Positions 55 to 20,934 of a stretch of 64,000 nt of DNA are shown here, piece by piece. A model generated the notes under the pieces. It was not told where the DNA came from and searched no databases. It saw only the letters and a program-made list of their open reading frames with translations. Each line of letters opens with the position of its first letter. Within the stretch, counting starts at the first letter, position 1. The stretch covers positions 35,822 through 99,821 of IMG/VR virus record IMGVR_UViG_3300018080_008375. One strand, written 5' to 3'. The DNA comes from a virus. Made by a program: the position numbers and the translations under genes.

Positions 55-618
55 ATGAAGTATATGCTTGCAGTGGACCTGGAGACTACCGGGCTGAATC
101 CGAGGCATCATGAGATCACGCAGATAGGCGCGATCCTGCTGGACAGGGAGTTGAAGGAACTCGGCGAGTTCGAGACGCTTGTTAAGATCGACTATCCGGA
201 GCGCGGGCTTGAGGGCGGCTTTGATGTGTTCAAATACACCGGTATTACGCAGGACAGTCTCAAAGACGCTCCGACGCTGAAGAAGTCCCTGCGCGCCATG
301 GAGGTGTTCGTTAGGTCCAAGATCGGCGGGTTTAGCCTGGAAAGCGTGGCGGTGTTCGGCCAGAACCCGCGCTTCGATGTCGGCTTCCTGGAGGAGGCGT
401 ACAGGAGCCTCGGATGGAAGTTTCCGTTCGATTTCCATGTCATCGGCCTTGAGAGTGCGTATGTGTTCTATAGCCTCAAGAAGAACGGAACGCTGCCGGT
501 CGGTCTCCGCCTGAAGGACATCTGTAAGAAGGCGGGAATCAAGAATGCGCAGGAGCACAATGCCATAGCAGACATTCGTGCTACAGTCGATTCGCTCAGG
601 GCGCTTTTGGAAAAGTAG
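55..618 (+). CDS. DEDDh 3'-5' exonuclease (DnaQ/epsilon-like)
   Basis: ExoI DLETTG, ExoII QNPRFD, ExoIII HNAIAD motifs. Confidence 0.9.
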   Translation: MKYMLAVDLETTGLNPRHHEITQIGAILLDRELKELGEFETLVKIDYPERGLEGGFDVFKYTGITQDSLKDAPTLKKSLRAMEVFVRSKIGGFSLESVAVFGQNPRFDVGFLEEAYRSLGWKFPFDFHVIGLESAYVFYSLKKNGTLPVGLRLKDICKKAGIKNAQEHNAIADIRATVDSLRALLEK

Positions 619-1423: not shown

Positions 1424-1497
1424 GGCTCCGTGTGCTAACTGGCATAGCATCTCGATTTAAAATCGAGCGTTTGGGGGTTCGAATCCCTCCGGGGCCA
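1424..1497 (+). tRNA. tRNA-Leu(UAA) with short (class I-like) variable loop, no encoded CCA
   Basis: Acceptor GGCTCCG/CGGGGCC+A73; D stem TGCT/AGCA; anticodon stem CTCGA/TCGAG with loop TT-TAA-AA; T arm GGGGG-TTCGAAT-CCCTC. Confidence 0.85.
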
Positions 1498-3186: not shown

Positions 3187-3303
3187 CAGATAGGGTCCTG
3201 GCGCGGACCCTGGCGCAGTTTGCGTACATGGCTTTTTGCGGAGCTAGCCTGCCGGGGCGTTGTACCGGATCGTTTCATCCGCCCATGCTTTCATACGCGC
3301 CAT

Positions 3304-3384
3304 GGAGGGTGCCGCCAAGGTGGCAACGCCGGCTTGAACCCGGTGGGGGCTTGGTCGCTCGGGGTTCGATTCCTCCACCCTCCG
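3304..3384 (+). tRNA. tRNA-Ser(UGA) with 8/4 fold
   Basis: 8-bp acceptor GGAGGGTG/CACCCTCC+G73; 4-bp T stem GGGG/CCTC with TTCGATT loop; 6-bp anticodon stem with loop CT-TGA-AC; variable arm GGGC/GCTC. Confidence 0.8.
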
Positions 3385-3399
3385 CCCGAGGAGAAAGAC

Positions 3400-4796: not shown

Positions 4797-5255
4797 ATGG
4801 GAAACAAGCCGTGGTACGGAGACTGGCACCTGCTGTACGAGCTTAGCAACAGCGGGGGACCGTATCCCTCCCCGCCCGCGCCGGGCGCCAAGGCGGTCCC
4901 GTTCGGATTCGAGGTTCCGAAGCATCCGTGGCCCGAGTGGCTGGACGGCAACTACAAGGTCCTGTCCAACCCGGCGTACAGGTCGTCGTACGACAGCAGC
5001 TCAGCGAGCGGCTCGATCGGAATATACAGCTTCGAGATCCGGGTGGTCCTCAAGGACGGCGTGAGCGAGGAAGCGGCCGTCGAGCGCCTGTACGCGTCGG
5101 GATGCGACGACGCACTGTTTGCCGTGTGCGACGGGGGCGTCAGGCTCGATTTCGACAGGGAAGCCGATTCTTTAAGCGAGGCGCTGGATTCGGCCTGCGC
5201 CGATATCATGAAATCCGGCGTTGCGCTGATGTGCGGCAGCAAAAAGATACGATAG
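4797..5255 (+). CDS. Hypothetical protein
   Basis: SD AGGAGG; C-terminal LYASGCDDA...LDFDREADSL domain. Confidence 0.55.
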   Translation: MGNKPWYGDWHLLYELSNSGGPYPSPPAPGAKAVPFGFEVPKHPWPEWLDGNYKVLSNPAYRSSYDSSSASGSIGIYSFEIRVVLKDGVSEEAAVERLYASGCDDALFAVCDGGVRLDFDREADSLSEALDSACADIMKSGVALMCGSKKIR

Positions 5256-5990: not shown

Positions 5991-7150
5991 TTGTCCACTT
6001 TTTTGCCGGATCTCCACTGATAGCATGACCAGTACTTCGCCTTTGTCTTGTCTTTGGCGGATTCGCTGTCGCATTTGTGCCGAGAACGGAAATTTCTCCT
6101 GCGTTCCGGGTCGTCGCGCCTGATTTCCATTTCCGGGTCGCCAAACTGTATTTTGCGCACCTTCTTGGTTTTCGGGTCCTTTACAAAGACATGAAACTTT
6201 TTCTTGTTTCCTGGCGGGTTGCGAACCGGGTCGTTCAGCTTGATCTTTTTTCCTTGGTATTCGGCAGCCGACACATGTAGGCTGCTCTTTTTGGGTTTGG
6301 AGAATTCCTGGATCTTCCTGAACGATGCCTCGAATTCTTTTTCCATATCGATGATGGCTTGTTTTTTGTCGGTAATTTCTTGTTCAAGTTCTTCCCATCT
6401 GGGAGAGAGCCTGGAGCGTATCTCCTGGATCTCTTTGGCGCGCGGGTTTTTTCTCTCTATGCGCAGCATGCGCGCGTATTCGGGACGCATTTTTTCCCTT
6501 TCGATGTTGAGCGTTTTCAGCTCCTGCCTGGCTCTTGGAATCATCTCCTCGCTAAGCTGGCGGGCGGCGTCTATTTCGCGCTCGAGCCTTGACCCCTTGG
6601 CCATTTTGGCGATGTCGGATATTTTCCAGGCGGCGTAGTGAAGCTCGTTGTCGAATGCGTGGAACGGCTTGAGGCCTTTTGACATGACATAGTTTATGAA
6701 CGACTCCTTGTCCGTGAAGCCTAGGAGGCGCGTGGCGGCATAGGTGGTCGTGTATATCTTTTCTCCATTTCGGGTGTTGCGCTGGACAAAATCGCGCAGG
6801 CGCCCTGACACAGAGCGCGGAAGCTCTGAGAGGGGCATCTTGTACAGCTCCTCTTCCACGAGTTTGACCTCGTGAGGGGACAGCGGTTCGCCTCGGTTCA
6901 TTTTCTCTTTTAATTCCGCAGCTCTCCTGGCACATTTTGGACATTGCGACATATTGGGCGGAATTTCTTTTCCGCATATGCGGCATGATGGTCTTTTTTC
7001 AGGTTTTTTTTCTTTGCGTTTTGTTTTGTGTGCGGACATCGGTCTGTCCGGGCAGTTTGGGCAGGTTGAAAGGTTTGCGGAAAACTTTCCGCCGCATTTC
7101 GGGCAGATGCGCCATCTGCCGGCTCGTTTGAACATGGGGCGTGTTGTCAT
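5987..7150 (-). CDS. Hypothetical protein with N-terminal Zn ribbons and a conserved-looking viral C-terminal domain
   Basis: Only convincing minus-strand gene; SD AGGAG; AEYQGKKIKL...KKFHVFVKDP...FGDP...FRSRHKC...KYWSC resembles a domain I recall from large-phage proteins. Confidence 0.7.
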   Translation of the reverse strand: MTTRPMFKRAGRWRICPKCGGKFSANLSTCPNCPDRPMSAHKTKRKEKKPEKRPSCRICGKEIPPNMSQCPKCARRAAELKEKMNRGEPLSPHEVKLVEEELYKMPLSELPRSVSGRLRDFVQRNTRNGEKIYTTTYAATRLLGFTDKESFINYVMSKGLKPFHAFDNELHYAAWKISDIAKMAKGSRLEREIDAARQLSEEMIPRARQELKTLNIEREKMRPEYARMLRIERKNPRAKEIQEIRSRLSPRWEELEQEITDKKQAIIDMEKEFEASFRKIQEFSKPKKSSLHVSAAEYQGKKIKLNDPVRNPPGNKKKFHVFVKDPKTKKVRKIQFGDPEMEIRRDDPERRRNFRSRHKCDSESAKDKTKAKYWSCYQWRSGKKVDN

Positions 7151-7181
7151 GTCGCACTCCTACTGATGGTCAGTTATATCT

Positions 7182-7200
7182 ATTCGTGATTATTGATAGA
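7182..7200 (-). promoter_or_regulatory. Putative phage promoter motif
   Basis: Minus-strand TCTATCAATAATCACGAAT about 30 nt upstream of the 7150 start; matches the copies at 2324, 36653 and 58987. Confidence 0.55.
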
Positions 7201-7224
7201 ATTTTGCCTAACAAGGATGGGACA

Positions 7225-7992
7225 ATGCTGTTCAAAGAGTTTGATGCGCGGATGCGCGTATACGAGACGGCGCACGACCAATGTGTTCTTCCTGGGGTAT
7301 ACATGGTTGCACGCCTTGATGGAAGGTGTTTTACGCGCCTTACAAAGGTACAAAGGTTTGAGAGGCCGTTTGACGTCGATTTTCGCGACCATATGGTCGC
7401 CGTTGCGTGCCACTTGATGCGCTGTGGATTCAACGCAACATACGCTTACATACAGAGCGACGAAATTTCGCTGCTATTTGATTTGGCAGAAAACACTTTC
7501 GGTCGCAAGCTGCGCAAGTTAAATTCCGTGCTGGCAGGGGAGGCAAGCGCTAAGTTCACAAAATGCCTCGGCGGAGGGGACATGGGAGTGTTCGATTGCC
7601 GCATTTCCCAGCTGCCGCGCACAGGCGATGTGGTTGATTACTTTCGCTGGAGGCAGGAGGACGCTTATCGCAATGCGCTACATGGTCACTGCTATTGGAT
7701 GCTTCGCGGCGATGGCAGGAGTGCTTCCGAAGCTACGAGCTTGTTAAGCGGCAGTTCGTCCTCCGACAAGCAAGAGCTGCTGTTTTCCAATGGGACGAAC
7801 TTCAACGGCATTCCATTGTGGCATAAGCGCGGAACTGGGATATATTGGGAAACATACAAGAAGAAAGCTGCCAATCCAGTTACCGGCGACAAAGTGGATG
7901 TCGAGCGCAGGCGCATTAGAGTTGATTTTGAGTTGCCGATACATGATGAATATGCGTTGTTCGTGCGCCGTCTGATCGGCGTTTTGACATGA
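7225..7992 (+). CDS. tRNA(His) guanylyltransferase Thg1-like protein
   Basis: RMRVYE, ARLDGRCF, YIQSDEISLL, FDCR, YFRWRQEDAYRN, KRG motifs. Confidence 0.92.
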   Translation: MLFKEFDARMRVYETAHDQCVLPGVYMVARLDGRCFTRLTKVQRFERPFDVDFRDHMVAVACHLMRCGFNATYAYIQSDEISLLFDLAENTFGRKLRKLNSVLAGEASAKFTKCLGGGDMGVFDCRISQLPRTGDVVDYFRWRQEDAYRNALHGHCYWMLRGDGRSASEATSLLSGSSSSDKQELLFSNGTNFNGIPLWHKRGTGIYWETYKKKAANPVTGDKVDVERRRIRVDFELPIHDEYALFVRRLIGVLT

Positions 7993-8010: not shown

Positions 8011-8544
8011 ATGGAAGTTCACTGGATAGCCGCTATTTCCGCCATCTTGCCCATGGCGTTTCTGCAGAGCGTCATACACCAGCTGTCGCACGGACTGGCA
8101 ATGCGGATTGGATGGAAGTGGGGGTTTAAAATACATCCGCTCCCATCCAAGGGGGCGTCTGGCGTTGTATGGCCGCATGTGACATACAGGATGTGTAGTA
8201 AATCGTGCGATCTGGACATGTTCGGAAAGGCTATCGCATCTATTGCGCCAAAAATAGCGAATGTCGTCTTGGTCATGGCATCTGGCATTGCCATAACTCA
8301 GTTGCTTAATCCAACGCTTCTGACCCTTCTGCTCATGTTCGCCTTGGCGAACACAGTCGACTTCATGTCTGCGTTGTCAATATTTCGCAAAAGCGGCACT
8401 TCGGACATATGGAGGTTTTCCAACTACACCGGAATCGAAACCAGTCATGTAAGATGGTTCGTGGCTGCAATTTCATTTTTGCTGCTGCTGCTAGTTGTCG
8501 TGTCTTTTTTCGGTCGGGTGCTTCCACAGACGGGAATATTATGA
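8011..8544 (+). CDS. Integral membrane protein
   Basis: Several hydrophobic segments; HQLSH (degenerate HExxH). Confidence 0.55.
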   Translation: MEVHWIAAISAILPMAFLQSVIHQLSHGLAMRIGWKWGFKIHPLPSKGASGVVWPHVTYRMCSKSCDLDMFGKAIASIAPKIANVVLVMASGIAITQLLNPTLLTLLLMFALANTVDFMSALSIFRKSGTSDIWRFSNYTGIETSHVRWFVAAISFLLLLLVVVSFFGRVLPQTGIL

Positions 8545-9650
8545 ATCGCATCATTAGGTCGAGAGTGCGCGGCGCCATTGTCGGAACGGCGATAGGCGAT
8601 GCGCTCGGGATGCCCGCGGAGGGCATGACGCCACAAGCCATAGCCCAGATGTACGGTCGCCTTCGTTCTTTTGCGAATCCTAAAGGGGGGACCTGGGCGC
8701 ATACACATCATCAGCTTGGGCGAGGGCAGTGGACGGACGACACGCAGCTTATGCTCGCCATTGGCGAATCGCTTTTGGCAAAGAAGCATGTCGATTTCCG
8801 GGACATCGCGGACAGGCATATATCCGCGATGGCGGAAAAGCGCGGATGGGGCGGATCGACGGTCACCGGCGTTTCCAAGATACGCGCCGGAGTGAATTGG
8901 TGGAACTCCGCCAAGCCGGAAGGCGCAGGCAACGGAACGCCCATGAAGATTGCGGCTGTCGGAGCGGTTGCCGGATTAGGTTTCCTCAAGCCGTTTGACA
9001 TGGCGTCGACGGTGATCAACATTTCTCGCATGACGCACGGCGACCCGCGGTCTGCGATAGCCGGCATCATCCAGGCTGAAGCCATCGCCATTGCAATCAA
9101 GGGAGGACCAGCGGCCCTCCGCTTGTATCTTGCCCAAGCCGATCAGAGAGCCGAAAGCTGGGAGCGCTGCGTCGGCTCGCAGGCTCCGCTTCTCAGCGCC
9201 AATATGTCTGCCGGTCAGAGTATCATCATGCGCGGCGGCGATCTTGAAAACCTTAGGTCCGCGCTGCGAGCCGGATGCTTCGTGGTGCAGTCGTTCCCAT
9301 TCACAATTTCGGCCGTTCTCCTGATGTTCGACCTGCCGCCCGACGAATGCCTGTCCAGGATCGTCGAGCAGGGGGGCGATACCGACACTACCGGCGCCAT
9401 GGCTGGCGCGGTGCTTGGGGCGGCGCATGGCATGGCGTCGTTCCCGGCGCGGCTCAGGCGCGGACTTGAGGGCTATAAAAGGCTTATTGCTCTTGCTGAC
9501 GGACTGTGCGCGATGACGGACATGTCGGAGCGTCCATGCGTAAGCGGGAAGTCGTTTTCCAGACCAAAGATTTCCTTTTCGCGCGGCAACGAAAAGCCAA
9601 AGACCTGCCAGCCTTTGGCTGACCTGGCGTTGTCAGCGGAGGGGATGTGA
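8541..9650 (+). CDS. ADP-ribosylglycohydrolase (DraG/ARH family)
   Basis: GTAIGDALG, GQWTDDTQ, GNG, THGDP, GGDTDTTGAMAGA. Confidence 0.92.
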   Translation: MNRIIRSRVRGAIVGTAIGDALGMPAEGMTPQAIAQMYGRLRSFANPKGGTWAHTHHQLGRGQWTDDTQLMLAIGESLLAKKHVDFRDIADRHISAMAEKRGWGGSTVTGVSKIRAGVNWWNSAKPEGAGNGTPMKIAAVGAVAGLGFLKPFDMASTVINISRMTHGDPRSAIAGIIQAEAIAIAIKGGPAALRLYLAQADQRAESWERCVGSQAPLLSANMSAGQSIIMRGGDLENLRSALRAGCFVVQSFPFTISAVLLMFDLPPDECLSRIVEQGGDTDTTGAMAGAVLGAAHGMASFPARLRRGLEGYKRLIALADGLCAMTDMSERPCVSGKSFSRPKISFSRGNEKPKTCQPLADLALSAEGM

Positions 9651-12079: not shown

Positions 12080-12482
12080 TCAAAAAAGCGGAAAATTTGT
12101 TGTAAAGGTTTCTGGTGACAAACAAAAGTTTGCTACAGGGGCGCAGCGCGACCGGCAAGAAGGCAAGGGAAGGTATGACTTGGTGAGCATATTTGCTTTG
12201 AGAGAAATTGCGCATGTTTATGAAGCCGGAAGCCTTGCGTATGGCGAGCGCAATTGGGAAAAGGGCATGAATCTCAGCAGATTTTTGGACAGCGCACTTC
12301 GTCACACTTTTCAGGTGATAGAGGGCAAGCGGGATGAAAATCATGCTGCGCAAGCCGCCTGGAATCTCATGGCTTTTATTCATACGCGCGAAATGATAAG
12401 CCGCGGCATTCTTCCAAAGAGCTTGGACGACCTTCCGGACTATATGCCAAAATCTGTAGACGAGGATGAAGGGTGCGGATGA
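12066..12482 (+). CDS. DUF5664 / dATP-dGTP diphosphohydrolase-like protein
   Basis: GAQRD..EGKGRYDL, YGERNWEKGM, HAAQAAWN. Confidence 0.8.
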   Translation: MGEHDQKSGKFVVKVSGDKQKFATGAQRDRQEGKGRYDLVSIFALREIAHVYEAGSLAYGERNWEKGMNLSRFLDSALRHTFQVIEGKRDENHAAQAAWNLMAFIHTREMISRGILPKSLDDLPDYMPKSVDEDEGCG

Positions 12483-12691: not shown

Positions 12692-13081
12692 ATGGGATAT
12701 GTTCAGTACATCATAGTCCGCAAGGACCTGGTTACGGAGATGGGAATTGGAAAGACGGCCGCCCAGGTAGCCCATGCGTCGTTGGGCGCGATCCTGGACA
12801 AGGGGAAGCTGGTTGACGACCCCGCAGTGCGCGGGTGGCTGACCGGAGCTTTCACCAAACTGGTGGTGTACGCCAAGACCAGGCAGAAGCTCTTGAATCT
12901 TATAGGGAAATGCCGTGAAGCAGAACTCCGTGTTAAGCCGATTTACGATGCGTGCCGCACCAAGTTGGAACCGGAGGAGCCTGACGGCACCACGCTGACT
13001 TGCGTGGGGCTGTCTCCAGTGCGCGCCGATGAGGTGCCAAAGTTTCTCAAAAAGCTCAGGTTACTGGATGGTGAAAAATGA
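12692..13081 (+). CDS. Peptidyl-tRNA hydrolase, Pth2 type
   Basis: IIVRKDL, GKTAAQVAHA, KLVV, DACRT, TCVGLSP, LRLL. Confidence 0.9.
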   Translation: MGYVQYIIVRKDLVTEMGIGKTAAQVAHASLGAILDKGKLVDDPAVRGWLTGAFTKLVVYAKTRQKLLNLIGKCREAELRVKPIYDACRTKLEPEEPDGTTLTCVGLSPVRADEVPKFLKKLRLLDGEK

Positions 13082-13759: not shown

Positions 13760-14110
13760 ATGCGCGTTGTTTTGTGTCTCGGATGCTGGGGAGCTGTTCA
13801 TGGCGACGGATTCGTCATGTGCCCCGGCGTTTCCAATGAAATATTGGATATAACTGGCGGAACAAAGAGGAATGCGGATATAGTTGACCATCTGGACTCG
13901 CATTACGGTTTGTTCGACAAGCCGCTGCTCAACAATGTGCACACTGCTCTGTTCGGGCTGAAGGAGAAGTTCAGCACGGCGTCCAGCCCGCTGTTCGGAG
14001 AAAAAGAGTTCCGAAGGCTGGAGCGGTTCTGCGTGGCGCATGCAAAATGCGGCCTGTTCCTGCGGCTTGAGATGAAAGGAAACGGGGATGAAGAAGGTCC
14101 TGGTGGTTGA
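13760..14110 (+). CDS. Hypothetical protein
   Basis: Fits the gene packing. Confidence 0.5.
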   Translation: MRVVLCLGCWGAVHGDGFVMCPGVSNEILDITGGTKRNADIVDHLDSHYGLFDKPLLNNVHTALFGLKEKFSTASSPLFGEKEFRRLERFCVAHAKCGLFLRLEMKGNGDEEGPGG

Positions 14111-14582
14111 TATTGACGGAACCATGGTTGACAACGATCACAAGGTCAGGGAGTTGTCGGACAGGTTCGGAAAAGGTCCGAACCATTGGGATGAGAAAAT
14201 GTGCGACGAGTTCTTCTCCGAGTGGTTCTATCCGTTTGCCGGCGCTTTGCTTCTGCCACAGACGGCGAAGCGGATGGGGGCGGAGTTTGTCTTTCTGACA
14301 GGAAGGTCCGAATGCTACAGGGGGCAGACGGAGCAGATGCTCGACAACGATTTTAAACTCGACTGCGACCGGACCCCCCTGTTCATGAGGTCCGACGGAG
14401 ACCGGCGGCCGAGCCATGTCGCCAAGACGGAGCTTGCCGAGCGGACCGTGGTGCCGATATACAGGGACAGCGTGCTCGTGTTCCTGGACGACGACGAAGC
14501 GTGCCTTGGGGAGTACAACAAATACGGGGTCGCCCTGAAGGCACCAAGATGCTGGGACGCCTTGGCATTCTGGACGGACTGA
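14088..14582 (+). CDS. HAD-family phosphatase (PNKP 3'-phosphatase-like)
   Basis: DIDGT, LTGRSE, LFMR..GDRR, FLDDD. Confidence 0.8.
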   Translation: MKKVLVVDIDGTMVDNDHKVRELSDRFGKGPNHWDEKMCDEFFSEWFYPFAGALLLPQTAKRMGAEFVFLTGRSECYRGQTEQMLDNDFKLDCDRTPLFMRSDGDRRPSHVAKTELAERTVVPIYRDSVLVFLDDDEACLGEYNKYGVALKAPRCWDALAFWTD

Positions 14583-19041: not shown

Positions 19042-19650
19042 ATGGCACGCGAAAAACACACGAAATGCGACAGGTGCGACAGGTGCGGGTTCGGCCTGGA
19101 GGACGGTCGGTCCGTACAGTGGTTCAGTAAGGACGGCTCGCTGATAGAGACGGTGTGCGAGGAGTGCGATTCGGACGAGAGGAAGCTGGAGTACCGCAAG
19201 ACCGGTCGCATCACCAGCAGGCTGCATTTGGACGCCGTCGTAAGGCGCGGCATAACCAGGGAAAACTGCCGCATCGACAGGACTTACCAGGCTGTGCTGG
19301 ACGACATGGAGAAGGTTGGGGAGGTCGCCAAAGGCTTCAACAAGAATGTGTGGCTGTCCGGCCTGCGGAAAAGGTACATGGATGCCAAGGAGAACGGGCA
19401 CAGCGCCAAGGCGGGCACCACGAAGTTCATGGTGTTCTGTATGGCTGGCAGGATACTGCTGACATTCGAGCGCGAGGGAGGGGACTACCTGACGCTCATA
19501 ACGTCCGACGAGGAGCCGCCGCGCGGTCTGGGGGTGCAGGGCATCGGATGCCGCGAGTATGTTGCCAGGGACATGATTTGTGATGTGTCCGTGGCATGGG
19601 AGGTTGGAAAGTTGGATTTTAAGCCTGATTCTGAGGTCAGTCTTATCTGA
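19042..19650 (+). CDS. Hypothetical protein
   Basis: CDRC, CEEC; coupled to next gene. Confidence 0.5.
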   Translation: MAREKHTKCDRCDRCGFGLEDGRSVQWFSKDGSLIETVCEECDSDERKLEYRKTGRITSRLHLDAVVRRGITRENCRIDRTYQAVLDDMEKVGEVAKGFNKNVWLSGLRKRYMDAKENGHSAKAGTTKFMVFCMAGRILLTFEREGGDYLTLITSDEEPPRGLGVQGIGCREYVARDMICDVSVAWEVGKLDFKPDSEVSLI

Positions 19651-19964
19651 TGGGCAAATCCTGGGCGGATGCCGCCATTGATAAACTGGCTGGCGGCGAA
19701 TCGGCGGATATCAGGCCGCATGGTAATTCCATGAAGGGAAAGGTCGAGAGCGGGCAGCAGGTAACGGTATCCCCGTGCGACGAGAGCGGGCTGGCTGCCG
19801 GCGACATGGTGCTCGTGCGCGTGAAGGGGCGCGTGTACCTTCATCTTGTCAAAGCCGTTCGCGAAGGCAAGGACGGAAAAAGGAGGTTTCAGATAGGCAA
19901 CAATTGCGGTGGTATAAACGGCTGGGTTGGAGCCAAGGCGATCTACGGAAAAATGGAGGGATGA
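19650..19964 (+). CDS. S24/S26 peptidase-like small protein
   Basis: GNSM, GDMVLV...LHLVKA, GNN..INGW. Confidence 0.6.
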   Translation: MGKSWADAAIDKLAGGESADIRPHGNSMKGKVESGQQVTVSPCDESGLAAGDMVLVRVKGRVYLHLVKAVREGKDGKRRFQIGNNCGGINGWVGAKAIYGKMEG

Positions 19965-20041
19965 TCCATAGGGGTTGGTGCCGGATACGGTCCGGGAGCC
20001 GCTGCGGCGGTTCAGGGGTTCGATTCCCCTTCCCTCCGCCA
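19955..20041 (+). tRNA. tRNA-like RNA with Ser-type acceptor and long variable arm, aberrant anticodon arm, encoded CCA
   Basis: GGAGGGA/TCCCTCC+G+CCA; T arm AGGGG-TTCGATT-CCCCT; variable arm GAGCCGC/GCGGTTC; anticodon arm CCGGA-TACGG-TCCGG. Confidence 0.75.
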
Positions 20042-20049
20042 ATCGGGTC

Positions 20050-20400
20050 ATGATGGTCCGAAAAATGGCCCAAAAGGAAACAATAATGCCGTACACGGAA
20101 AGGATCAAGAAGATAGCTCGGGCGGCGTACCACGGTCTTATTGACAAGGAGTGCGGTCCCGAATGGCTCATCGAATGCATGACCGATCGTTATTGGGACG
20201 ACATGGTACTTTGGAAAGAGAATGGCGTGGATCCCCCGCCTGACAGGCATGAGGCAATGGTGGCGATAGGATGCATGCTGCGCGACGGAAGGCTTGTCGC
20301 GGACGAGGAAGGAATGCTGTGGGCTCCGGCCTACTATCCCAACACTGTGGCGGATATCCGCAAGCGCAAGAGGCGCCCGAGGCGCAAATTTGAATGGTGA
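20050..20400 (+). CDS. Hypothetical protein
   Basis: Start uncertain (20050, 20065 or 20086). Confidence 0.45.
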   Translation: MMVRKMAQKETIMPYTERIKKIARAAYHGLIDKECGPEWLIECMTDRYWDDMVLWKENGVDPPPDRHEAMVAIGCMLRDGRLVADEEGMLWAPAYYPNTVADIRKRKRRPRRKFEW

Positions 20401-20403
20401 TTC

Positions 20404-20934
20404 ATGGAATGGTTTACTTCTGATACGCATTTCGGTGCTCAGCGTACGCTGGAGCTGAGCAGGCGACCCTTCGATTCCGTGGCGTGCATGGACTGGACCA
20501 TCGTGCGGAACTGGAACAGTATTGTGGGGCGCTCGGATACGGTCTATCATCTCGGAGATTTTGGCAACTGGTCCATGCTGGGCTATCTCAACGGCAACAT
20601 TATCCTTCTTCCAGGAAATTATGACGAGCCGATAGACGTATACCGGTCCGGAGTCAGGACGATCAAGAGCGGTCATGTCCAGTGGTTCAACGACGTGCGG
20701 CTCAAGATGGTGCATGATCCGCTGTCGGCCAAAAAGAGTCTGCCGGAGCAGTCGACGATGGATGAGGACCCGTTCTATCTGTTCGGTCACATACACAAGC
20801 TGCAAATGGTGAAGGAGAACGGTCTCAACGTGGGCGTGGACTGTCACAACTTCTGCCCCATAGACTTGGATACGGTACTGTTTTATCGCAATGCCATCAT
20901 CAATCATTACGACGAGAACGTGTTTTGCCCATGA
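20404..20934 (+). CDS. Calcineurin-like metallophosphoesterase
   Basis: SDTHF, HLGDF, PGNYD, GHIH, NVGVD. Confidence 0.9.
   Translation: MEWFTSDTHFGAQRTLELSRRPFDSVACMDWTIVRNWNSIVGRSDTVYHLGDFGNWSMLGYLNGNIILLPGNYDEPIDVYRSGVRTIKSGHVQWFNDVRLKMVHDPLSAKKSLPEQSTMDEDPFYLFGHIHKLQMVKENGLNVGVDCHNFCPIDLDTVLFYRNAIINHYDENVFCP

Follow-up and report, generated by a model that had tools for sequence, protein, structure and literature searches.

A tRNA-like gene at positions 19955-20041 of the window (the whole 64,000-nt stretch of viral DNA that was analyzed) raises a question of what an RNA with a serine-type body but a short, arginine-like anticodon arm could do in a phage. The window belongs to a 99.8-kb IMG/VR record, a huge-phage fragment that represents about 25% of the genome, for which CheckV estimates a full size of about 400 kb. 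We find that 19955-20041 is a genuine gene of tRNA shape, which follows the canonical bacterial 7/5 frame of tRNA-Ser and has an anticodon arm 2 nt short. Its parts are as follows.

19955..20041, + strand: whole tRNA-like gene, 87 nt with encoded CCA (ARAGORN, tRNA-Ser covariance model, Rfam tRNA-Sec)
19955..19961, + strand: acceptor stem 5′ strand GGAGGGA, preceded by U at -1 (19954) and followed by U8 and G9 (19962-19963)
19964..19979, + strand: D arm, 3-bp stem AUC/GGU and 10-nt loop CAUAGGGGUU, from the covariance-model alignment
19981..19995, + strand: anticodon arm CCGGA-UACGG-UCCGG, 15 nt against the usual 17, with the ACG triplet at 19987-19989
19996..20013, + strand: G44, variable arm and C48, with a 6-bp stem AGCCGC/GCGGUU and loop UGCG
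20014..20030, + strand: T arm AGGGG-UUCGAUU-CCCCU, read from the sequence
20031..20041, + strand: acceptor stem 3′ strand UCCCUCC, G73 and encoded CCA, read from the sequence

An earlier sequence-only reading had claimed a perfect 7-bp acceptor stem with G73 and encoded CCA, and a perfect T arm. Both hold, since GGAGGGA and UCCCUCC form seven Watson-Crick pairs and the T arm has a 5-bp stem and a canonical loop. The variable arm, given there as 6-7 bp, has six pairs, or seven if G44 and C48 pair too. The acceptor/T branch is 7/5; an eighth pair would oppose U8 to U, while A49-U65 pairs. The D stem consists of A10-U25, U11-G24, and C12-G23, and the D loop keeps A14, G18, and G19 and carries U in place of G15 and A21. 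In the minimum-energy fold the D arm becomes a 5-bp stem with the tetraloop AUAG, while the tRNA-Ser model prefers the 3-bp stem. Both anticodon-arm forms that had been proposed can be read, namely 5 bp closing the 5-nt loop UACGG and 4 bp with the 7-nt loop A-U-ACG-G-U, and the minimum-energy fold adds a third form with 6 bp and a 3-nt loop. The energies of these conformers are -5.9 (4 bp, 7-nt loop), -7.2 (5 bp, 5-nt loop) and -8.3 kcal/mol (6 bp, 3-nt loop).

Running ARAGORN, as had been suggested, we obtained a call of tRNA-Arg(ACG) that uses the 7-nt register. The Rfam tRNA model gave no match to 19955-20041. Its best Rfam match, tRNA-Sec, reached 33.4 bits against a cut-off of 47, about as much as the phage's own tRNA-Ser(CGA). 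The 7/5 branch, G73, and an anticodon that is neither UCA nor GUA led us to reject a tRNA-Sec, tRNA-Tyr, or tRNA-Leu identity. The covariance model that had also been proposed was trained on 16 canonical bacterial tRNA-Ser genes that had been selected by their match to the T arm and 3′ acceptor strand of 19955-20041. It scores the gene at 59.4 bits (E 6.6e-11), a value that this selection inflates and makes partly circular; the orthologues sought along with it were not found. In the model alignment, 26/26 pairs are standard across five helices, with no non-standard pair, and the only gaps are 2 nt in the anticodon loop (UACGG) and 1 nt in the D loop.

We compared the body with 22 bacterial genes, 16 of which make up the covariance model, that were retrieved by the target's T arm, 3′ acceptor strand, and G73, with one T-loop base left free. 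Twenty-one of the 22 genes sharing these elements are tRNA-Ser. All 22 start with GGAGGGAU, as 19955-20041 does, and this start was unforced by the search pattern. U8, G9, A49, C48, and CCA, equally unforced, recur in most of them, and the T arm differs from theirs solely at the pattern-free loop base. Among 80 viral long-arm tRNAs with GGAGGG...CCCUCC-G73, ARAGORN called 52 as Ser and two as Glu(UUC) (L106 and L108) and left 26 uncalled, one of which (L127) shows a GAU loop by eye; Leu and Tyr anticodons were absent from the called tRNAs of this set. The frame is thus serine-type by 21/22 bacterial genes and by a viral set without Leu or Tyr calls, in agreement with the serine identity that had been claimed for the body. 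The variable-arm layout (1 nt, 6 bp, 4-nt loop, 1 nt) is also that of a canonical bacterial tRNA-Ser such as L183. SerRS identity, according to PMC5389517 and PMC6827378, consists of G73 and the long arm, and the anticodon is not read.

The divergence from tRNA-Ser is concentrated in the D arm and the anticodon loop, and all helices are intact. The pairs 10-25 (A-U) and 31-39 (A-U) are changed on both strands relative to the common tRNA-Ser, and pairing is kept. The intact helices and these two kept pairs support the argument, made already from the letters, against simple decay. Set against a functional tRNA-Ser, the gene has the 7-bp acceptor, G73, the 5-bp T stem with canonical loop, and the tRNA-Ser variable-arm geometry; it lacks a 7-nt loop, a Ser anticodon (NGA/GCU), C11-G24, pairing of G15 with C48, and A21. 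In E. coli, C11-G24 is a serine identity pair; this RNA has U11-G24 there. Because of this U11-G24 pair and the lost G15-C48 and A21 tertiary contacts, folding and serylation could be impaired.

The broken anticodon arm noticed in the sequence-only reading is 2 nt short of every comparator examined. In 0.9 Mb of phage tRNA clusters, 33/33 other long-arm tRNAs have a 5-bp stem and a 7-nt loop. Searching IMG/VR for the GGUG-CCGGA...UCCGG arm with loops of 3-9 nt, we recovered as real tRNAs four Ser(UGA) and three Tyr(GUA), each with a loop of 7 nt; none of the 5-nt-loop matches was a real tRNA. Loop-closing pairs at 32-38 / 33-37 are predicted by nearest-neighbor folding in 9/30 other ARAGORN tRNAs of the phage as well, and we therefore dropped the predicted closure as proof of non-function. 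As the closure is so widely shared, it is no argument by itself, and the real defect is the missing length, worth one base pair. We also considered that the 7-nt register might be fixed by the CCGG/CCGG stem that the gene shares with the phage's 8/4 Ser tRNAs, an idea weakened by the canonical 7/5 frame alignment, which places CCGGA/UCCGG at positions 27-31 and 39-43. The short loop is not an assembly slip, because the Logan assembly of the source run, made by an independent assembler, is identical across 19700-20300; an assembly error was rejected on this ground.

The record holds 31 ARAGORN tRNAs, among which only 19955-20041 and tRNA-Asp encode CCA. All four Ser isoacceptors, Ser(CGA), Ser(UGA), Ser(GCU), and Ser(GGA), are present, so the RNA from 19955-20041 is not needed for serine decoding. 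Three of these four Ser tRNAs fold 8/4 and none encodes CCA; in two, a mismatch at 27-43 leaves the anticodon stem with just four standard pairs. Among the anticodons of the record, ACG alone occurs three times, all others being single-copy, and a canonical Arg(ACG) gene was not found there. The two other ACG copies are themselves odd.

Genome 12301-12380: odd ACG tRNA-like gene, perfect 5-bp stem, loop CUACGGA
Genome 20030-20176: odd ACG tRNA-like gene, perfect 5-bp stem, loop CUACGAA

The gene lies in a same-strand gene array, between these two neighbors.

19650..19964, + strand: upstream ORF, 104 aa, with weak Peptidase_S24 similarity below the Pfam cut-off
20086..20400, + strand: downstream ORF, 104 aa, no family, starting 44 nt past CCA and preceded by AAGGA

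The last 10 nt of the upstream ORF (GAG GGA TGA), stop codon included, fall inside the tRNA 5′ strand, as had been seen. The separation of about 16 kb from the tRNA cluster likewise stands, with the nearest other ARAGORN tRNA at 3303-3387, 16.6 kb off. A simple scan detected neither a promoter nor a terminator proper to the gene. We rejected a phage attachment site carrying a tRNA 3′ half, as the cloverleaf is full and includes its own 5′ strand, and there is no integrase among the neighbors scanned. The phage encodes RNase T-like, Thg1-like, Pth2, and PNKP-type phosphatase proteins and carries its own tmRNA. A SerRS or ArgRS gene was not found in the record (about 25% of the genome). A phage TadA was considered and rejected, the sole deaminase in the record being of the dCMP-deaminase/ComEB type. 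The 9-mer GATACGGTC has three additional copies elsewhere in the record; this recurrence is probably chance coding sequence.

We looked for relatives in several collections. GenBank phages gave no match to the 10 kb around the gene or to the 87 nt alone. IMG/VR yielded 55 matches to the 15-nt anticodon arm, all chance matches in non-tRNA DNA, and nothing with the T arm of the phage's 8/4 Ser tRNAs. In JGI metagenomes, the D-stem/anticodon-stem/variable-arm pattern produced one chance match within a coding region. Relatives of the downstream phosphoesterase (28-47% identity) have no neighboring genes in common with this locus, and ARAGORN found a tRNA upstream of the phosphoesterase match at 0/9 loci. 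Five DNA-polymerase relatives (54-57% identity) sit on fragments of 33-161 kb that are 8-40% complete; 352 kb from four of them held no tRNA, and the 87 nt were unmatched in all five. For a 202-aa upstream protein, the search returned no homologue except itself; this protein is also carried by a 254.8-kb contig. Among the sequencing runs containing the stretch there was no RNA run, the only one being the probable source, a sediment metagenome. Since none of these searches found an orthologue or syntenic relative, we can only infer function, and selection is argued from one sequence.

What, then, might the gene make? The earlier reading had offered a decoy, a non-ribosomal serine donor, or a missense tRNA. 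Our best explanation, held tentatively and at somewhat less than even odds on the sequence, is that 19955-20041 specifies a tRNA mimic that is processed and can be charged with serine but has poor or no decoding ability. Serine loading is probable and normal codon reading unlikely, because the body is serine-type but the arm is two bases short and carries an Arg (ACG) triplet. The gene would be co-transcribed with its same-strand neighbors, and RNase P would excise the RNA, whose 3′ end would be trimmed to the encoded CCA; U at -1 and the CCA form the processing context. The host SerRS would then charge it with serine via G73, the acceptor stem, and the long arm, and the charged RNA would fit badly or not at all in the ribosomal decoding site. 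It might serve to engage or titrate a loop-reading host factor, for example TadA, the A34 deaminase, or a nuclease directed at Arg-tRNA. Such titration is plausible, since UACGG is the tRNA-Arg(ACG) loop core and two other odd ACG-loop genes occur in the record. The mimicry of Arg(ACG) would be imperfect, as the 7-nt register has A32-U38 against C32/A38 and the RNA is without A20; the same register offers U33 and a purine at 37, as in a decoder, which counts against the mimic reading. We know of no phage tRNA decoy demonstrated to date. The anatomy, the serine-type frame, the uniqueness of the short loop, and the threefold ACG are observed; processing, serylation, and poor decoding are what we infer, and the decoy role above all.

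The same arm could, alternatively, decode weakly, which we consider unlikely. Opening of A31-U39 would give 4 bp and a 7-nt loop and place Ser at CGU (and at CGC/CGA if host TadA makes inosine-34), causing low-level Arg-to-Ser mistranslation. ARAGORN accepts this 7-nt register, U33 and G37 flank ACG, and the 7-nt window differs from the loop of genome 12301-12380 at positions 32 and 38 only. The loop closure shared with 9/30 phage tRNAs and the two phage Ser tRNAs with four standard anticodon-stem pairs point the same way, and Ser-frame tRNAs with clean UUC loops occur in a Dehalococcoidia genome and in viral contigs. PMC5389517 describes allo-tRNAs of Ser identity with an Arg anticodon (GCG) and Ser-inserting allo-tRNAs that function in E. 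coli; it also reports E. coli killed by an induced Ser-at-Leu allo-tRNA, which speaks against this reading. Moreover, the D/anticodon helix is one pair shorter than in all comparators, which should misplace the anticodon, and folding energies favor the closed conformer over the open one by 2.4 kcal/mol. Efficient misreading would also harm the phage itself, because CGC, CGU, and CGA make up about 3.4% of its own codons by a crude ORF call. A bolder version, which strikes us as distinctly improbable, holds that the phage mistranslates Arg to Ser deliberately at CGU/CGC/CGA after A34-to-I editing, as a weapon that shuts off the host or as a means of making statistical proteins, while the two other ACG-loop genes give correct Arg decoding and protect phage proteins. 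If the gene is instead a neutral leftover, which seems to us as unlikely as weak decoding, it would be a functionless, decaying captured cellular tRNA-Ser, or a chimera of tRNA-Ser and tRNA-Arg(ACG) formed by out-of-register recombination at their common CGG/CCG stem bases. It is a singleton with no relatives found, redundant beside four Ser tRNAs, isolated from the tRNA cluster, overlapping an ORF end, and with no promoter detected; its 7/5 frame is unlike that of three of the phage Ser tRNAs and its CCA is lacking in all four, suggesting separate acquisition. A register-shifted arm swap from genome 12301-12380 into a CCGG stem should give exactly the 15-nt arm, and the conserved D-loop bases G15 and A21 are lost. 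However, 26/26 pairs are intact while the D arm and loop are heavily changed, and random decay should break stems too; 10-25 and 31-39 still pair despite both strands differing from the common tRNA-Ser state. Useless DNA is, besides, usually shed by phage genomes.

That the RNA is an arginine acceptor appears to us the least probable reading. It would be a long-arm tRNA-Arg(ACG), charged via C35/G36 by the host ArgRS or by a phage ArgRS from the unsequenced part, and would decode CGN together with the two other ACG elements. The ARAGORN call is Arg(ACG), and CGC ranks second in frequency among the Arg codons of the record, which has no canonical Arg(ACG) gene. Long arms also occur in phage clusters on tRNAs with Asn, Glu, Gly, Met, and Pro anticodons, and huge phages can encode up to 15 aminoacyl-tRNA synthetases (PMC7162821). 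Yet competition from SerRS is to be expected, since the acceptor, G73, and arm geometry are of the tRNA-Ser kind, and an ArgRS gene is absent from the record. A20 is a bacterial ArgRS determinant, and the D loop CAUAGGGGUU lacks an A after G18-G19, hence A20. In the phage clusters sampled, each of the 18 Arg(ACG) genes has a short arm, and long-arm non-Ser tRNAs elsewhere are without the Ser-type GGAGGG...CCCUCC acceptor. It is very unlikely, too, that the acceptor/T minihelix serves as an RNase P and 3′-end processing site that cuts or stabilizes a polycistronic mRNA and could strip the stop codon of the upstream ORF. The position inside a same-strand array with no promoter or terminator detected, the 5′ end within the last three codons of the upstream ORF, and the phage-borne tmRNA would suit such a mark; the precise tRNA-Ser variable-arm geometry, G73, and encoded CCA would not be needed for it.

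Among natural tRNAs, a mismatch between charging identity and anticodon is rare, and the known cases are mostly allo-tRNAs, whose acceptor branches are unusual. In 19955-20041 the mismatch sits on a fully canonical tRNA-Ser frame, in a phage richly equipped with genes for tRNAs and tRNA repair. If charged but non-decoding, the RNA would provide a naturally occurring tRNA mimic and a way to approach a host factor targeting tRNA-Arg(ACG); if decoding, it would represent phage-driven Arg-to-Ser recoding; and if a relic, it would record tRNA gene capture and recombination in huge phages.

Compared with the canonical 7/5 tRNA-Ser (L183:4515-4601, L199:2394-2478), the gene has in common the GGAGGGA-U-G start, 3-bp D stem, G26, 5-bp CCGG-type anticodon stem, 1 nt/6-bp/4-nt-loop variable arm, C48, T arm, G73, and CCA. 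It differs in an anticodon loop of 5 nt instead of 7, the lack of a Ser anticodon, a D loop one base shorter, D-stem pairs A-U, U-G, and C-G in place of G-C, C-G, and C-G, and U for G15 and A21. Bacterial tRNA-Arg(ACG) has in common with it the UACGG loop core and the adjoining CGG/CCG, as in genome 12301-12380, but is type I with a short arm, C32/A38, and A20, none of which is found here, where the variable region is 18 nt. U-ACG-G is present, while a 7-nt loop appears only by opening A31-U39, which leaves A32/U38 and a 4-bp stem.

In the allo- or irregular tRNAs described by Mukai et al. 2017 (PMC5389517), a non-serine anticodon, which may be that of arginine (GCG), is combined with a long variable arm and G73 or U73. 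Our gene shows the long arm, G73, and a non-Ser anticodon as well; both are caught by the tRNA-Sec covariance model. Some of the allo-tRNAs appear charged yet unused in translation. Their branch is 8/4 or 9/3, whereas ours is 7/5, and they have 7-nt loops and longer anticodon stems where ours has a shorter arm. As to a tRNA-Sec-like D arm and lengthened anticodon stem, the minimum-energy fold of our gene has a 5-bp D stem and a 6-bp anticodon stem, and the tRNA-Ser model prefers a 3-bp D stem. Allo-tRNAs often lie near toxin-antitoxin genes, but 19955-20041 lies among phage nucleotide-metabolism genes. Engineered mistranslating tRNA-Ser variants (PMC6827378, PMC8473984) likewise combine a tRNA-Ser body with a foreign anticodon and are still serylated, and second-site changes lower their activity; they were, however, built in the laboratory and keep the normal 17-nt anticodon arm. 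Phage tRNAs for which evasion of host tRNA nucleases by altered anticodon loops has been proposed (PMC10264068) resemble our case in an anticodon-loop oddity, and the phage here also has tRNA repair/maturation genes. Those tRNAs keep the 7-nt loop, cognate identity, and decoding and carry point changes where the nuclease recognizes them, whereas 19955-20041 breaks both the loop length and the match between identity and anticodon.

Performing sequence and fold analyses, we found that the tRNA-like gene at window 19955-20041 (+) forms a cloverleaf with a perfect 7-bp acceptor stem, G73, an encoded CCA, a perfect T arm and a variable stem of 6-7 bp. Its anticodon arm (CCGGA-UACGG-UCCGG) is 15 nt long, compared with the normal 17. 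This confirms the anatomy described in the sequence-only reading. ARAGORN, proposed there as a check, also detected the gene, with the anticodon ACG in the 7-nt-loop register. Three foldings of the arm were computed.

Computed folding energies of the anticodon arm
4 bp and 7-nt loop (ARAGORN's reading, anticodon ACG): -5.9 kcal/mol
5 bp and 5-nt loop: -7.2 kcal/mol
6 bp and 3-nt loop: -8.3 kcal/mol

The same sequence stands in a second assembly built from the source reads, which rules out an assembly error behind the short loop. The tRNA-like feature is real.

The window represents bases 35822-99821 of a single-contig virus record of 99.8 kb, with nearly all genes on the + strand. ARAGORN called 31 tRNAs and one tmRNA in the record, CheckV put its completeness at ~25%, and the DNA-polymerase relatives in IMG/VR are themselves fragments (33-161 kb, 8-40% complete). 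Thus, the record covers a portion of a huge phage genome; such phages are known to carry many tRNAs, a tmRNA and translation factors (PMC7162821). The 5′ end of the tRNA-like gene shares the last 10 nt of ORF 19650-19964, its end lies 44 nt before the next ORF start, and the closest other ARAGORN-called tRNA is 16.6 kb away; the overlap and the isolation of about 16 kb noted earlier both hold. The surrounding genes encode an S41 peptidase, ThyX, two phosphoesterases, a NUDIX hydrolase and Dcm methylases. Farther upstream lie five genes that jointly constitute a tRNA maturation and repair set.

Upstream tRNA maturation and repair genes
window 55-618: RNase T-like exonuclease
window 7141-7992: Thg1-like tRNA 5′-end polymerase
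window 8409-9650: ADP-ribosylglycohydrolase
window 12692-13081: Pth2
window 14088-14582: PNKP-type HAD phosphatase

No SerRS, ArgRS or TadA-like gene was found in the record, which covers about a quarter of the genome.

We compared the body of the gene with viral and cellular tRNAs. The viral pattern GGAGGG...long arm...GGTTCGATTCC....CCCTCC-G matched 80 tRNAs, which ARAGORN called Ser (52/80), Glu(UUC) (2/80) or left uncalled (26/80, among them locus L127, with a GAU loop by eye). When its T arm, 3′ acceptor strand and G73 were used to scan 185,579 genomes of bacteria and archaea, 22 genes from many phyla were recovered; all 22 start with GGAGGGAU, and 21 are tRNA-Ser. A covariance model was built from 16 of them, with the cloverleaf supplied by hand. 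The gene was the top match of the whole record at 59.4 bits, a score inflated because the training genes were selected through its own 3′ sequence; the phage's own Ser(CGA) scored 48.7 bits. The alignment had zero non-standard pairs, and its only gaps were two anticodon-loop bases and one D-loop base. The D stem, G26, anticodon stem, variable arm (1 nt, 6 bp, 4-nt loop, 1 nt) and C48 were colinear without being forced by the selection. These comparisons uphold the earlier serine call, and the body is serine-type, of the cellular kind. The proposed covariance-model check aligned the gene with tRNA-Ser; the homologue search found no orthologue or syntenic relative in GenBank phages, IMG/VR or JGI metagenomes.

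Searching the whole record for T arms accompanied by a matching 7-bp acceptor stem revealed four tRNA-like genes overlooked by ARAGORN.

Further Ser and ACG tRNA-like genes of the phage
genome 22046-22132 (before the window): Ser(GCU), 8/4 acceptor/T type, missed by ARAGORN
genome 22525-22612 (before the window): Ser(GGA), 8/4 type, missed by ARAGORN
window 3304-3387: Ser(UGA), 8/4 type
genome 12301-12380 (before the window): ACG element, arm CUCGG-CUACGGA-CCGAG, without a D arm, D-like hairpin at the variable position
genome 20030-20176 (before the window): ACG element, arm CUUCU-CUACGAA-GGAAG, ~85-nt D-loop insert

Such 8/4 tRNAs are reported for phages (PMC5389517). Since Ser(GCU) and Ser(GGA) accompany the other Ser tRNAs, serine decoding by the phage does not require the 19955-20041 gene. 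It has a 7/5 build, unlike three of the four Ser tRNAs of the phage, and an encoded CCA, which all four lack. In both ACG elements the acceptor, T and anticodon arms are perfect, and both were overlooked by ARAGORN and Rfam. ACG is the sole anticodon with three copies in the record, all of them in deviant bodies. In a crude call of + strand ORFs, the Arg codons numbered AGG 823, CGC 685, CGG 318, AGA 269, CGA 133 and CGU 133. The 9-mer GATACGGTC of the anticodon hairpin has three further copies in the record (window 20534-20544 (+) and 4857-4867 (-); G000:C1:26757-26767 (-), in whole-record coordinates) against ~0.8 expected, and these are probably chance coding sequence.

Among the comparators examined, the short loop is unique to this gene. 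In phage tRNA clusters totalling 0.9 Mb, the model picked out another 33 long-arm tRNAs, all with 5 bp and a 7-nt loop; the IMG/VR tRNAs sharing the GGUG-CCGGA...UCCGG arm, four Ser(UGA) and three Tyr(GUA), have 7-nt loops throughout. A simple 2-nt deletion from a Ser loop could not yield this loop, since pair 31-39 has also turned from U-A into A-U. In the D arm, G10-C25 became A-U and C11-G24 became U-G; U replaces G15 and A21, while A14, G18 and G19 are kept.

Nearest-neighbour folding predicts closure of the loop by 32-38 and 33-37 pairs. We rejected this closure as a sign of non-function, since 9/30 other ARAGORN-called phage tRNAs, e.g. Pro(CGG) and Ala(GGC), close likewise. In two Ser tRNAs of this phage, the anticodon stem has just four standard pairs. 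What sets the gene apart is length: its stacked D/anticodon helix lacks one base pair relative to all comparators. Judging by tRNA geometry, the anticodon would be expected to sit wrongly on the ribosome, so efficient decoding is unlikely.

Our leading but tentative explanation is a processed, serine-chargeable tRNA mimic that decodes poorly or not at all. In a simple scan the gene showed neither a promoter nor a terminator belonging to it, and it is probably transcribed together with its neighbours. U stands at -1 and the gene encodes CCA; release of the RNA would probably be by RNase P and trimming of the 3′ end. Serylation would be expected, with the altered D arm as a caveat, because SerRS recognizes G73, the acceptor stem and the long arm and leaves the anticodon unread (section 13 of PMC5389517; PMC6827378). 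The short arm should bar normal decoding, which together with charging would make the RNA a chargeable mimic. A release signal of this kind could instead serve as a pure processing mark, which we consider improbable. Serine insertion at CGN codons by a weak missense tRNA has a precedent in allo-tRNAs with Arg GCG anticodons (section 14 of PMC5389517); with the anticodon presumably misplaced, we regard it as unlikely.

A neutral relic or Ser/Arg recombination chimera is about as unlikely as missense insertion. The changes cluster in the D arm and anticodon loop with 26/26 pairs kept; as far as a single sequence can tell, this pattern is more in keeping with selection acting on the acceptor, T and variable arms than with random decay. 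An Arg acceptor, as the ACG triplet might imply, is the least probable reading given the serine-type body. For the chargeable mimic, the UACGG hairpin, which has its core in common with the two other ACG elements, suggests, speculatively, a role directed at a factor that reads the tRNA-Arg(ACG) loop, e.g. a nuclease or TadA. Phage tRNAs have been proposed to counter tRNA nucleases (PMC10264068).

The record holds other unusual tRNAs. All four Leu-anticodon tRNAs (window 1424-1497; G000:C1 26788-26862, 26866-26942 and 29294-29368) are short type I, 74-77 nt, with a 5-nt variable loop and A73, whereas cellular tRNA-Leu has a long variable arm. Their D-arm motif occurs at >119 IMG/VR loci; in a motif-biased sample of 99, ARAGORN called 131 short and 22 long Leu tRNAs. 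A tRNA-Asn(GUU) (G000:C1:5618-5741, before the window; 47.3 bits on Rfam tRNA) was found only after removing a 51-nt anticodon-loop insert. Directly after tRNA-Trp, G000:C1:11309-11394 (before the window) folds like a tRNA, with a terminal stem of 13 bp and the T arm GCGG-UUCGAAU-CCGC.

Mismatches between body and anticodon occur elsewhere. A Dehalococcoidia genome (L195:2446-2534) has a clean canonical 7/5 Ser body with the loop CUUUCAA (UUC, Glu). Serine-frame long-arm tRNAs with non-serine loops occur in the viral pair L106/L108 (CCUUCAU, UUC) and in viral L127 (GAU). Seven further viral loci (L237, L247, L263, L268, L272, L290, L294) carry long-arm tRNAs with Met, Asn, Glu, Gly, Pro, UAU and CUA anticodons, none with the Ser-type GGAGGG...CCCUCC acceptor. 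In Rfam, the top match of the 19955-20041 gene was tRNA-Sec, under the cut-off (33.4 bits), and the phage's Ser(CGA) behaved the same (35.9 bits). Allo-tRNAs were discovered as tRNA-Sec false matches of this kind, according to section 13 of PMC5389517. The gene is a variant within the known class of irregular tRNAs with mismatched identity and anticodon.
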